This document shows, one piece after another, positions 28,904-32,330 of a DNA stretch of 64,000 nucleotides. The position numbers were made by a program, and so were the translations under genes. The DNA is from Spirochaetia bacterium (GTDB lineage: Bacteria > Spirochaetota > Spirochaetia > UBA9216). The notes under the pieces are model-generated. The model was not told the DNA's origin. It made no database searches and saw only the letters and a program-made list of their open reading frames with translations. The stretch covers positions 1,792,001 to 1,856,000 of the forward strand of contig OY776510.1 of the NCBI GenBank assembly GCA_963675665.1, written 5' to 3'. Position 1 is the stretch's first letter; the number at the start of each line of letters is the position of its first letter.

Positions 28904-30019
28904 ATGGCAAAAATCGACTATGACCTTGATCTTCAGATAGAACCCGAAATGCCTGAAAAGAAAGATTTCAGGATAGGCTGTATTGGCGCAGGTTTTATTA
29001 TGAAAGATTGTCATTTGGTTGCTTACAGAGACGCTGGATTCAATCCTTATGCGATTACTTCACTTAGCAGAGAAGAATCGGAAGCTGTTGCCGCGGAGCA
29101 CAATATACCCAGGGTTTACGACAGCTGGAAGGATCTGATAAAAGATCCGGAGATCGAAATTCTTGATATTGCGATTCCGCCGGATAAACAGCTTGAAGTT
29201 GTAGAAGCTGCAGCGAAAGAAAGCAGTCATATCAGGGGGATTCAGGCACAAAAACCGCTGGCGATGAACCTGAAAGAAGCTGTAAAGATTGTCAAGGTCT
29301 GCAAGGACGCAGGAATTACTCTCGGGGTGAATTCTAATATGCGTTATGATCAGTCAATCCGTGCGCTTAAGGCTGTTCTTGATCGGGGGTATCTTGGTGA
29401 GCCCGTTCTTGCAACTATCGACATGAGGGCGATTCCCCACTGGCAGGATTTTCTGAAGAAATACGATCGTATCGAGATTCTTAACATGGGAATCCATCAC
29501 CTGGACGTTTTCAGGTATCTGTTTGGTGATCCGGAAAAGATTACAGCTGTCACCAGAAAAGACCCGAGGACCGCTTTTGAGCATATCGACGGGATATCAC
29601 AGGTTACCTATAAATACGCCAACGATTTTATGGCTACTACGCTGGATGACGTTTGGGCGGGACCTGCGGAGGGTGCCGAGAAGGATTATTACATTAGATG
29701 GCGGGTCGAAGGTACGGACGGAATAGCACAGGGAACTATAAGCTGGTTTAATTATCCGGTTCCGACGCCCAGTACCATGGATTTCACGACAAAACAGTTT
29801 CCAGGTTATTGGTTTAAACCGCGCTGGAATAAAGTATGGTTTCCGGATGCATTTCAGGGAACAATGGCGCAGCTTCTGAGGGCGGTTGAGAGCGGAACCG
29901 AACCGGAAATAAGCGGAAGGGATAATCTGAAAACTCTCGCAGCTGTAGATGCAAGCTACAGATCCATCGCTGAAGAGAGAACTGTAGCTCTTGCAGAAGT
30001 ATTGAGAGAAATTCAGTAA
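28904..30019 (+). CDS. Gfo/Idh/MocA oxidoreductase
   Basis: IGAGFI, QKPLA, GIHHLD; AGGAGG RBS before ATG 28904. Confidence 0.9.
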   Translation: MAKIDYDLDLQIEPEMPEKKDFRIGCIGAGFIMKDCHLVAYRDAGFNPYAITSLSREESEAVAAEHNIPRVYDSWKDLIKDPEIEILDIAIPPDKQLEVVEAAAKESSHIRGIQAQKPLAMNLKEAVKIVKVCKDAGITLGVNSNMRYDQSIRALKAVLDRGYLGEPVLATIDMRAIPHWQDFLKKYDRIEILNMGIHHLDVFRYLFGDPEKITAVTRKDPRTAFEHIDGISQVTYKYANDFMATTLDDVWAGPAEGAEKDYYIRWRVEGTDGIAQGTISWFNYPVPTPSTMDFTTKQFPGYWFKPRWNKVWFPDAFQGTMAQLLRAVESGTEPEISGRDNLKTLAAVDASYRSIAEERTVALAEVLREIQ

Positions 30020-30064
30020 GAAATATTTTTTTATAGGAGGAATGATAAAAAGTCTTCATGAGCT

Positions 30065-30217
30065 GGTGAATTGATATACTGCCTTAACTTTAATTGAGGC
30101 AGTAAGGTTACTGTTCGACATTTTTACTGGTCCGCGAGACCGTTTAGGAGATTGAAGAGCCGTAACCGAAACATTCAATGGTCTGCGAGACCGGATAGGA
30201 GAATGGAACAATTCACC
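30065..30217 (+). ncRNA. Candidate bridge RNA of the IS110 element
   Basis: Outer stem GGTGAATTG/CAATTCACC encloses a hairpin (30077-30104) and two similar GGTC-YGCGA-GACC..TAGGAG modules. Confidence 0.7.
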
Positions 30218-30252
30218 GTATAGGCACTGCTTCAAACTATTGGAGATAGAAC

Positions 30253-31365
30253 ATGAAGATGAGTATTGGCGTGGATCTTCACAAAACGCAGTTTACAGTA
30301 TGCCTTTTAAGTGAAGACCGAAAAATTGATCAATTGGGAATGTATCCGACCAGCGGAAATGGTTATGGAGCATTTCTGAAAATGCTGGATGAATATTGTG
30401 AAGAGGAATATGAGTTGAGAGCAGCGGTGGAAACAACCGGGAATGCCCGTTATTTCCGCAATAAACTGTTAAAGGCTGGAGTCGAAGTGGTTGTAGTGAA
30501 TACTTTGAAATTCAAGGTAGTGAATGAATCTGTAAAAAAGACAGACAAACATGATGCACGCACCCTGGCGGAGTTTCTTGAGAAAGACATGCTGCCTGAA
30601 TCGATATTATGTTCCCAAGAGAGTGAGGATATTCGAAGGGTGCTGAAATCCAGGTCGATACTGGTAAAATCTGTTGTGTCGTTAAAGAACCAGGTGCATG
30701 GCTTATTACTTGGTTATGGAATAGAGACCAAACGCGGACAGCTGCAGAGTAAAAAAGAAAGGCAGCGAATCCTGAACGGTCTCGAGGACCACGACTTTTA
30801 CGGAAGCGCTGCCAAAACGGTAATACCGTTACTGGATATGATAGATAATCAGGCATCGCAAGTCAAGCAGCTTGAAAAGGTTTTGGCTGAGCTTGTGGAG
30901 GACGATGAAGATGTTGAGCTTCTGCAGACAATACCAGGCGTGGGTCTAATAACAGCAGCAACAGTAAGAGCCTATACAGACGATATCGGCAGATATGATA
31001 GTGCGAAGAAATATGCAGCAAACGCCGGGCTTGTGCCATGGGTGCAGAACTCAAATATGACAATACATCATGGACATATAACAAAGCGTGGGCCTGTAGA
31101 ACTGAGGACAGCCTTCGTACAGATGGTGATGGGAATGGTTCGTATGCAAAAGAAGACCGGGACGTACCGAATAATGACGAAGTATGCAGCGATGAAGAAG
31201 CAGAAAGGCTCGGGTAAGAGTGTAATAGCTGCCGCCCGCAAGATGAGCACTTTGGTATATACAATTTTAAAAACCAGAGAGCCGTTTGATCCGATGAAAA
31301 TGGCTTTTAGAAAAGAATACAGGGAAATGCAGGCAGCAGCATGGGAAGCTGTAATGGTCGGTTGA
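30253..31365 (+). CDS. IS110 family DEDD recombinase/transposase
   Basis: GVDLHK, VETTG and KTDKHDA (DEDD); IPGVG and GLVP..QNS Tnp domain. Confidence 0.95.
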   Translation: MKMSIGVDLHKTQFTVCLLSEDRKIDQLGMYPTSGNGYGAFLKMLDEYCEEEYELRAAVETTGNARYFRNKLLKAGVEVVVVNTLKFKVVNESVKKTDKHDARTLAEFLEKDMLPESILCSQESEDIRRVLKSRSILVKSVVSLKNQVHGLLLGYGIETKRGQLQSKKERQRILNGLEDHDFYGSAAKTVIPLLDMIDNQASQVKQLEKVLAELVEDDEDVELLQTIPGVGLITAATVRAYTDDIGRYDSAKKYAANAGLVPWVQNSNMTIHHGHITKRGPVELRTAFVQMVMGMVRMQKKTGTYRIMTKYAAMKKQKGSGKSVIAAARKMSTLVYTILKTREPFDPMKMAFRKEYREMQAAAWEAVMVG

Positions 31366-31427
31366 TATCCGACCAGATCATAAGCTTATATTTTTAGCTT
31401 GTGGTTGACTTTTTATAGGAGGAATTA

Positions 31428-32330
31428 ATGTTACAGGTAGGAATTTTCAACGGATACTTTCCGTATACCCTTGAAAAACAGATAAGCTGTCTGAAGGAAA
31501 ACGGTTTTCAGACTGTACAATTAGATCTTGCGTTCAAGGACATGGACTTTTCGGCGGGAACAATAACCAAAGAAAAATGCCACAAGGTGAGAGATGCATT
31601 CAGAGATGCCAATCTGCCGATTTGCGCCATATCCGGATACACAAATATCATTCATCCCGATCTTGACGAGAGAAAGAAAAGAGTCGGTTACCTTAAAGAA
31701 ATTATCAGGCATGCACGGGACCTTGGAACTCCGTATGTAATTTCCGAGACGGGAACGTACAACACCGAAAGCGATTGGGTTCATCATCCCAAAAACAAGA
31801 CTGAAGAAGGTTATGAAGAATGCGTTAAGGTCCTCGGAGAGCTTGTCCAGGAAGCCTATGATCACGGCGCAGTATTCCTGGTTGAAAACTATGTCAACAA
31901 CGTTATCGGTTCGATAGACGAAGTAAACAGACTGTTTACCGATATCAATCACACAGCCATGGGCCTTCTTATGGATCCGACGAATTACTTCGACGATTCA
32001 AACATAGATCATATGGATTTTACACTGAACAGGATATTCGATTCGGTCTCGGACAAAATCAGGATTGCTCATGCAAAGGACTGTAAAAGAGCTGAAAACA
32101 CGGTTGAAAAGCACGCTGAAATAGATGCATCGGAAGCGCACACCTTCCGCGGCGCCGGCGCTGTAGAACTTCCTGCACCGGGGACTGGCTCGCTTAATTA
32201 TGAACTGTATTTCAGAAGACTATCAGAGCGGCACACGAATATTCCGATTATCATTGAACACCTTGAAGAGGATTATATTCCGACAGCCAAGAAGTTTGTT
32301 GATGATACATTGAAGAAAGTAGGTTATTAA
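31428..32330 (+). CDS. Sugar phosphate isomerase/epimerase (TIM barrel)
   Basis: VEN, MDPTN, HAKD, PGTG, IIEH. Confidence 0.88.
   Translation: MLQVGIFNGYFPYTLEKQISCLKENGFQTVQLDLAFKDMDFSAGTITKEKCHKVRDAFRDANLPICAISGYTNIIHPDLDERKKRVGYLKEIIRHARDLGTPYVISETGTYNTESDWVHHPKNKTEEGYEECVKVLGELVQEAYDHGAVFLVENYVNNVIGSIDEVNRLFTDINHTAMGLLMDPTNYFDDSNIDHMDFTLNRIFDSVSDKIRIAHAKDCKRAENTVEKHAEIDASEAHTFRGAGAVELPAPGTGSLNYELYFRRLSERHTNIPIIIEHLEEDYIPTAKKFVDDTLKKVGY

Follow-up and report, generated by a model that had tools for sequence, protein, structure and literature searches.

The IS110 family of insertion sequences (ISs) includes several described systems that resemble the one reported here. In IS621, the circle junction forms a promoter (PMC11208160); the left guide, for the bottom strand, precedes the stem-loop on its 5' side, the right guide follows on its 3' side, and both include the CT core (PMC11208158). 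For the seekRNAs of IS1111-type elements, Siddiquee et al. describe a guide order matching the one found below, with the non-coding region downstream (PMC11187229). IS900 and IS901 from Mycobacterium avium, also of the IS110 family, insert between the Shine-Dalgarno sequence (SD) and the start codon (PMC2942039), and a 2026 preprint presents 86 covariance models of diverse bridge RNAs. The present study concerns an IS110-family element in a stretch of 64,000 nucleotides (nt) from a Spirochaetia bacterium (assembly GCA_963675665.1, contig OY776510.1, positions 1,792,001 to 1,856,000; hereafter the window, whose numbering we use unless stated otherwise). We consider it likely that this is an active, bridge-RNA-guided IS with a guide RNA apparently hard-wired for translation-initiation regions.

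An initial annotation, made from the sequence alone, had noted the 16-mer TTTTTATAGGAGGAAT at both junctions of the element. The repeat is exact: it occurs just twice in the window, at 30028-30043 and 31410-31425, and two matches were seen in none of 100 shuffles. The pair flanks a 1,382-bp element whose 370-aa open reading frame (ORF) carries the Pfam domains DEDD_Tnp_IS110 (PF01548, residues 5-155, E 9e-18) and Transposase_20 (PF02371, residues 222-303, E 1e-17), that is, the N-terminal RuvC-like DEDD domain and C-terminal Tnp domain by which the family is defined. With 216.8 bits, the protein also passes the cut-off of 140 for NCBIfam NF033542 ("IS110 family RNA-guided transposase"), and its nearest solved relatives are the transposases of ISCro4 (9t56, E 7e-16) and IS621 (8wt6, E 6e-15), matched mostly over residues 202-348.

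The genome, which is a single 5.15-Mb contig, contains 15 copies of the element, with a 1366-bp interior that is at least 99.9% identical between them. Eight copies are identical, and the other seven have a single C-to-T substitution in common, 35 nt from the right end (interior position 1331, window 31374); the two sublineages suggest two recent bursts. In isolate sequencing runs, words from the element have about 13 times the depth of its flanks. All 15 left junctions read [variable]-(T/A)AGGAG-GAATGATAAAAAGTC and all 15 right junctions read GTTGACTTTTTAT-AGGAG, followed by 5-7 variable nt and ATG. Because these element ends are constant, the two junctions have only AGGAG in common. The TTTTTAT before the right-hand AGGAG and the GAAT after the left-hand one are part of the element, and a 16-nt repeat appears at the window copy because its target, too, had TTTTTAT before and GAAT after AGGAG. 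These additional letters are chance or preferred matches. The repeat is thus real at this copy, while its length is not general. The initial annotation had allowed that the 16 bp might prove to be a variable duplication, and perfect 16-nt direct repeats do resemble a target-site duplication made by staggered cuts in the style of DDE transposons. However, the other 14 copies share AGGAG only, with constant element ends as the neighbouring letters, and the protein is a DEDD/serine IS110-type recombinase. The junctions of the 15 copies rule a target-site duplication out, and we give it practically no credence; insertion uses a short core present in donor and target alike, as expected of the family.

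In every one of the 15 copies, the right-hand AGGAG is followed after 5-7 nt by the ATG of a gene in the same orientation, in agreement with the proposal in the initial annotation that the IS targets translation-initiation regions. Of the 15 ORFs behind the copies, 13 have Pfam domains aligned from the N-terminus, among them phosphoglucose isomerase, KDPG aldolase, an Orn/DAP decarboxylase and a pyridine-nucleotide disulphide oxidoreductase.

The empty allele of the window locus occurs in nature. A 295-nt contig from a marine metagenome run of another study (X5) joins window position 30027 to 31410, skipping 1382 bases with 16 letters that fit either side and retaining a single TTTTTATAGGAGGAAT. 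The oxidoreductase and isomerase-like genes that border the element are also adjacent in three relatives (G001, G008 and G010; one is congeneric, the other two belong to the same family), where the orthologous locus has a single AGGAG 5-7 nt before the ATG. The metagenomic contig corresponds to the empty site that had been reconstructed in the initial annotation. Runs X1 and X3 yielded a different contig, which aligns to 30037-30072 and from 31402 onward. In it, a diverged version of the initial ~36 nt of the element is followed by six other letters and then by the terminal ~20 nt, probably representing a further miniature or deleted derivative located elsewhere in that organism.

As a control for the placement before start codons, AGGAG sites were counted on an IS-free version of the genome. 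A start codon opening at least 60 codons lies 4-9 nt after 623 of 2780 [AT]AGGAG sites and 172 of 766 TAGGAG sites; only 18-22% of comparable AGGAG sites have a start codon at this distance. One could suppose that the element recognizes nothing but NN-AGGAG, and that its link to start codons is a by-product, because AGGAG outside genes is mostly an SD in these genomes and selection removes insertions within genes. SDs followed by ATG do make up 58-70% of non-genic sites on a crude gene map. Even with purging of every genic insertion, however, 15 out of 15 would have a probability of 3e-4 to 5e-3. Occupied sites are also distinguished beyond the motif: before the ATG they match the guide-predicted TAAAA (see below) at 3.07 of 5 positions, compared with 1.96 for all 910 AGGAG-N(4-9)-ATG sites and 2.15 for the 72 whose left flank is similar (p ~3e-4), and the spacing from AGGAG to ATG is 6 nt in 12 of 15 (background 33-42%). 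Such a preference within one genome for particular bases and for one spacing speaks against recognition of the motif only.

The same placement holds among relatives. Scans of genome and metagenome collections gave 160 loci, of which 20 distant or incomplete ones (L072, L075-L088 and L091-L095; mostly Lentisphaeria, 32-41% identity) were excluded. The same ends, ...TTGACTTTTTAT-AGGAG and AGGAG-G[A/C/T][A/C/T][T/C]G-ATAAAA, recur in elements of 53-88% protein identity that come from several phyla as well as from metagenomes; their recorded hosts include Oceanispirochaeta, Marispirochaeta, Alkalispirochaeta, Treponema, Syntrophales, Desulfobacterales, Dehalococcoidales and Dysgonamonadaceae. The placement of our own copies, co-oriented and with AGGAG 5-7 nt ahead of an ATG, recurs in 20 of 20 copies from two other genomes plus one further genome. 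Across 88 unique right junctions, our own included, an ATG follows AGGAG by 3-9 nt in 82, with a spacing of 6 in 45, which is the kind of bias that, according to the initial annotation, would support its claim. Six right junctions depart from this rule, among them one with GTG at 6 nt and one behind a tandem-duplicated right end.

Several individual loci are of note. In L045 the right end is tandem-duplicated downstream of the recombinase gene, giving two ...CTCACGG(T)TGACTTTTTATAGGAG before the ATG, which may have arisen by more than one round of recombination at the regenerated AGGAG. Two draft genomes of the same genus and family (G002 and G009) have short matches to the element ends, 84-97% identical, at the ends of contigs; the element is probably multi-copy in both and breaks their assemblies.

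The region between the left end and the recombinase gene has the features of a guide RNA. Positions 30056-30252 form a minimum-free-energy fold more stable than shuffled sequences (z = -4.65), and a consensus built from 40 distinct left ends has compensatory changes in 15 of 33 pairs, some of them in each of the small hairpins, in the first loop's outer stem and in an enclosing stem. From this we infer that the ~210 nt ahead of the recombinase gene specify a bridge RNA with two loops (Table 1), each loop being built as stem, strand, hairpin, strand. Rfam returned no family matching the element region at E up to 1. The long non-coding end of the element therefore carries what is typical of IS110 members, a predicted two-loop RNA that matches both target and donor, as judged by the covariation described next.

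Table 1 Features of the locus (window positions, except for the miniature elements, which are given in positions of the own contig or of the locus named).
Feature	Position	Strand	Remarks
Upstream gene, GFO/IDH/MocA oxidoreductase	28904..30019	+	Co-oriented; stop codon 15 nt before AGGAG
Target-derived TTTTTAT	30028-30034		Precedes left AGGAG
Left core copy AGGAG	30035..30039	+	SD of the target; sole sequence shared by the junctions across 15 copies
Inserted element, 1382 bp	30040..31421	+	Drawn with the crossover after the left AGGAG
TG-A-TAAAAA	30043-30051		Resembles an extended -10 box; putative promoter part
Left terminal inverted repeat ATAAAAAGTC	30045..30054	+	By eye; kept in relatives
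5' stem-loop of predicted bridge RNA	30077..30104	+	From the fold; 3' half in the enclosing compensated stem
Target-binding loop (predicted)	30106..30167	+	Outer stem GGTTAC/GTAACC; hairpin 30129-30141
Target loop, 5' strand CGA-CAT-TTTTA-CT	30116-30128		CAT at 30119-30121
Target loop, 3' strand G-TTT-AGGAG-ATT	30142-30153		
Donor-binding loop (predicted)	30167..30215	+	Hairpin 30180-30192
Donor loop, 5' strand CATTC	30172-30176		Complement of donor-right GAATG
Donor loop, 3' strand G-GAT-AGGAG-AAT	30193-30204		Matches donor-left TAT-AGGAG
IS110-family recombinase gene, 370 aa	30253..31365	+	Pfam, NCBIfam and structure-relative matches
Right end	31405..31416	+	Counted by hand; conserved in all relatives
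TTGACT	31405-31410		Resembles a -35 box
Right terminal inverted repeat GACTTTTTAT	31407-31416		
Regenerated ribosome-binding site	31417..31430	+	Right AGGAG 31417-31421, native 6-nt spacer GAATTA, ATG 31428-31430
Downstream gene, xylose-isomerase-like TIM-barrel protein	31428..32330	+	Its SD is the target
Miniature element, own contig	2973164-2973371	-	
Miniature element, own contig	894794-894942	-	
Miniature element, own contig	4930026-4930172	-	
Miniature element, own contig	1454621	+	
Miniature element, own contig	2525924	+	
Miniature element in a relative	L016:1500-1612		

The 3' strand of the target loop follows the pattern G-NNN-AGGAG across elements, and the bases before AGGAG vary together with the left flank of the insertion. 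Over 87 sites, flank position -1 is identical to the guide in 81 (44.9 expected) and position -2 in 68 (36.3 expected); position -3 does not covary. In a family-level permutation over 56 distinct guide pairs, none of 5000 shuffles reached the observed value. As examples, our element reads TTT, Syntrophales elements read CAA and sit at AA-AGGAG sites, and an Oceanispirochaeta element with the guide TAC lies at TAC-AGGAG in 7 of 10 copies. Two relatives vary this strand: in L073, ~150 nt before the recombinase start, the guide is duplicated (GTGA-AGGAG-ACC-GTGA-AGGAG), and in L071, from a Leptospira metagenome-assembled genome, AGAG replaces AGGAG in the guide and the left junction reads AGAGG, which may be a natural change of the otherwise invariant word.

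The 5' strand of the target loop has the pattern CG-N-CAT-NNNNN-NT, in which CAT is constant among the parsed loci, although the filter used for the statistics required it. The three bases that follow CAU in the RNA are complementary to ATG-1, -2 and -3, with excess counts of 16.1, 14.9 and 7.4 that are the highest values in their respective rows, and the effect persists with one site per guide (n=36). As a specific case, ATG-1 is C in 10 of 36 sites with guide G and in 2 of 46 otherwise (p = 0.0035). A family permutation over the 56 guide pairs gave 2.02 of 4 matches, vs 1.43, a value reached in 0 of 5000 shuffles. ATG-5 and ATG-6 do not covary with this strand, and the coding positions show no signal of complementarity to it. 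Sense pairing of the same strand with the T-run on the left was tried as an alternative; it fits our element and some from Oceanispirochaeta, fails for Syntrophales and Marispirochaeta, and was rejected.

The donor loop appears to read the joined ends of the element by similar rules. Its 3' strand is [G/A]AT-AGGAG across elements, and its 5' strand holds the complement of the donor-right side. Of 14 distinct pairs, 11 are fully complementary over positions +1 to +5, two have one mismatch and one is a mis-parsed row. Compensatory combinations occur: CATAC/GTATG in L039, and CATGC/GCATG and CGTGC/GCACG in loci compared by eye. The predicted donor junction, ...TTTTTAT-AGGAG-GA-ATG-ATAAAAAG..., is itself a miniature SD-plus-ATG. 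The suggestion in the initial annotation that the donor site mimics an SD accordingly agrees with the joined ends, TAT-AGGAG-GA-ATG, and with the presence of AGGAG in both guide loops.

Together these observations lead us to propose the following mechanism. The 3' strand of the target loop would recognize NN-AGGAG on the bottom strand, and CAU-NNN of its 5' strand would pair with NNN-ATG of the top strand, usually 6 nt after AGGAG, with the donor loop reading the joined element ends by the same logic. Recombination within the shared AGGAG would then insert the element in the orientation of the gene and without target duplication. The crossover would lie somewhere inside AGGAG. AGGAG and the native spacer would remain before the ATG, and the integrated RNA and recombinase gene would end up inside the host transcript. 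A circular intermediate and a junction promoter are suggested by analogy with IS621: joined ends would place TTGACT 17 nt from the TG-A-TAAAAA of the left end.

Several points weigh against this interpretation. The RNA, the circle and any activity are computational predictions, and of the 155 loci put through parsing (140 relatives and the 15 own copies), 47 could not be parsed and were left out. With AGGAG instead of ATG as the anchor of the right flank, none of seven registers covaries clearly with the guide (best p = 0.018). If NNN-ATG is paired, the two recognized segments must therefore be separated by a gap that varies over ~1-4 nt, a feature not known for IS621 and without a structural precedent in the literature consulted. 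The guide of our element reads TTT-AGGAG, yet 10 of its 15 own sites have A at -2: either this position is tolerant or something else contributes. Between 5 and 7 of these 15 sites adjoin a miniature element (see below), which inflates the T-run on the left. Moreover, neither sites from the same genome nor related families can be counted as independent, and part of the covariation across families could reflect host base composition; the anti-diagonal complementarity and the within-genome control argue against base composition as the whole effect.

These points bear on the motif-only explanation, under which CAU would be structural. The absence of a clear AGGAG-anchored pairing signal on the right, the range of AGGAG-to-ATG spacings from 3 to 9 and the lack of covariation at left -3, ATG-5 and ATG-6 would all be as it predicts. 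It does not account for antiparallel complementarity that is specific to position, linking the bases after CAU with ATG-1 to -3 and appearing nowhere else, and we regard it as unlikely. Guided recognition of both SD and start codon can be put in a more complete form, which we hold as a possibility somewhat short of probable. A widespread clade would use the invariant guide words AGGAG and CAU to read the SD and the start codon on opposite strands across a flexible gap, with programmable bases confined to 2-3 nt beside each word and a miniature SD-ATG as donor. Insertion would regenerate targets on both sides, allowing elements and 96-138-nt miniatures to stack before genes, and the element would be transcribed from host promoters as an operon-embedded, polarity-neutral passenger. 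This geometry is one that has not been described for IS621.

The miniatures are 96-138-nt elements in the same genome, located at SD sites with AGGAG on both sides (Table 1). Their ends carry the terminal letters of the IS, GAATGATAAAA on the left and TTTTA[T/C] on the right, and each has three hairpins with compensatory changes in the stems. Nine copies fit a strict pattern, and in a looser scan the left end and first hairpin are present in 13 of 21 rows. Searched against Rfam at gathering scores, seven flanking loci gave no family matching the miniature elements. Because the donor loop would match the miniatures' ends once joined, mobilization in trans is likely, judging from sequence. Three miniatures form a tandem array near 2.973 Mb, and two directly abut full-element copies with which they share one AGGAG. 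The last hairpin of the miniature is present in 5-7 of the 15 own left flanks, where it explains part of the left T-run. With its U-run this hairpin resembles a terminator just before the SD and could affect expression of the gene behind.

The association of miniatures with IS copies raises the question of whether the IS recognizes a repeat, i.e., a miniature element or leader ending in an SD, as REP-targeting IS110 members do (REP, repetitive extragenic palindrome). The own flanks that carry the repeat-family hairpin and T-run, and the two copies that directly abut a full miniature element, are what such targeting would produce. At least 8 of the 15 own sites, however, have no repeat; relatives in other genomes lie at SDs with unrelated left flanks; and the window site lacks the repeat, its orthologous empty sites being plain intergenic SDs. 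Repeat targeting is thus highly improbable, and guidance to the translation-initiation region remains our preferred explanation.

At the window locus, the short distance between the upstream stop codon and AGGAG places the element inside an operon. A scan of 29900-31500 found no terminator-like sites, and a promoter scan of the same interval gave matches no more numerous than in shuffles. With the SD and spacer kept and no terminator-like site found in the element, read-through may allow expression of both the element and the gene behind it. The initial annotation had held that insertion leaves the downstream gene with an intact ribosome-binding site: at the level of sequence this is correct, with the right AGGAG and native spacer retained, and the gene may still be expressed. 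For annotation, an IS110 copy in an operon need not mark the gene behind it as inactive; central genes, including phosphoglucose isomerase and a dihydrolipoamide-dehydrogenase-like gene, are found right behind copies. The behaviour amounts to a natural safe-harbour strategy, using sites that are abundant, non-coding and transcribed and that the insertion itself restores.

Compared with IS621/ISEc21, the element has the same protein family and a non-coding region upstream of the recombinase gene. It also shares the two loops, each with stem, guide, stem-loop and guide; the division of labour within each loop, where one strand pairs with the left bottom strand and the second with the right top strand; insertion without target duplication; and -35-like and -10-like boxes split between the ends. 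The protein similarity is distant (E ~1e-15, mainly residues 202-348). The order of guides is reversed, with the complement of the top strand 5' of the stem-loop and the match to the bottom strand 3' of it. The invariant shared sequence is AGGAG instead of the CT dinucleotide, and, unlike in IS621, the core is not part of the right guide and the distance between the two varies. The element consequently falls outside the narrow IS110 group, which is defined by the IS621 guide order and by a core in both guides, as its 5' guide has no complement of the core.

The IS1111 group (ISEc11, ISKpn4 and ISPa11) resembles our element in guide order and in having inverted repeats next to the ends; covariation of the target and donor loops agrees with the order given in PMC11187229. 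Its targets are attC sites, REPs and the like, where ours are SDs, and its RNA is encoded downstream, whereas here the RNA region (30056-30252) is upstream and only ~50 nt (31366-31416) follow the stop codon. The clade combines an upstream RNA with an IS1111-type guide order. The design space of bridge RNAs is thereby widened to an upstream RNA with reversed guides and a right guide off the core, and a gap of several nt between the two recognized segments is apparently tolerated.

None of the titles or abstract openings surveyed concerned SD targeting by a bridge RNA, although supplementary motif lists, including those of Durrant 2024, could include this clade. SD targeting by bridge RNA is also not the subject of PMC7823733, PMC3196728, PMC11187229 or a bioRxiv preprint, in the portions available, and the preprint, on non-coding clusters, lacks the terms "ribosome binding" and "start codon". 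Given the 86 published bridge-RNA models, the present RNA class may already be catalogued without the SD reading.

Set beside the published description of IS900 and IS901, our element inserts in the same region and in strict orientation; here the crossover would lie inside the SD itself and not in the gap between SD and ATG, and the spacer stays with the gene. The IS900 transposase gene is antisense to the target gene, an arrangement that lets the hed ORF use host signals; the recombinase gene studied here is co-oriented with the target gene. A 1997 paper by Doran reportedly bears the title "IS900 targets translation initiation signals". The literature we consulted offers no RNA-guide explanation for IS900. 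The guide words described above would supply, at the level of sequence, an RNA-guide explanation for the old observation that some IS110-family elements land at translation-initiation signals. Because insertion of IS900/IS901 between SD and start codon and the existence of bridge RNAs were both already known, what is new here is the reversed guide order and the matching miniature elements.

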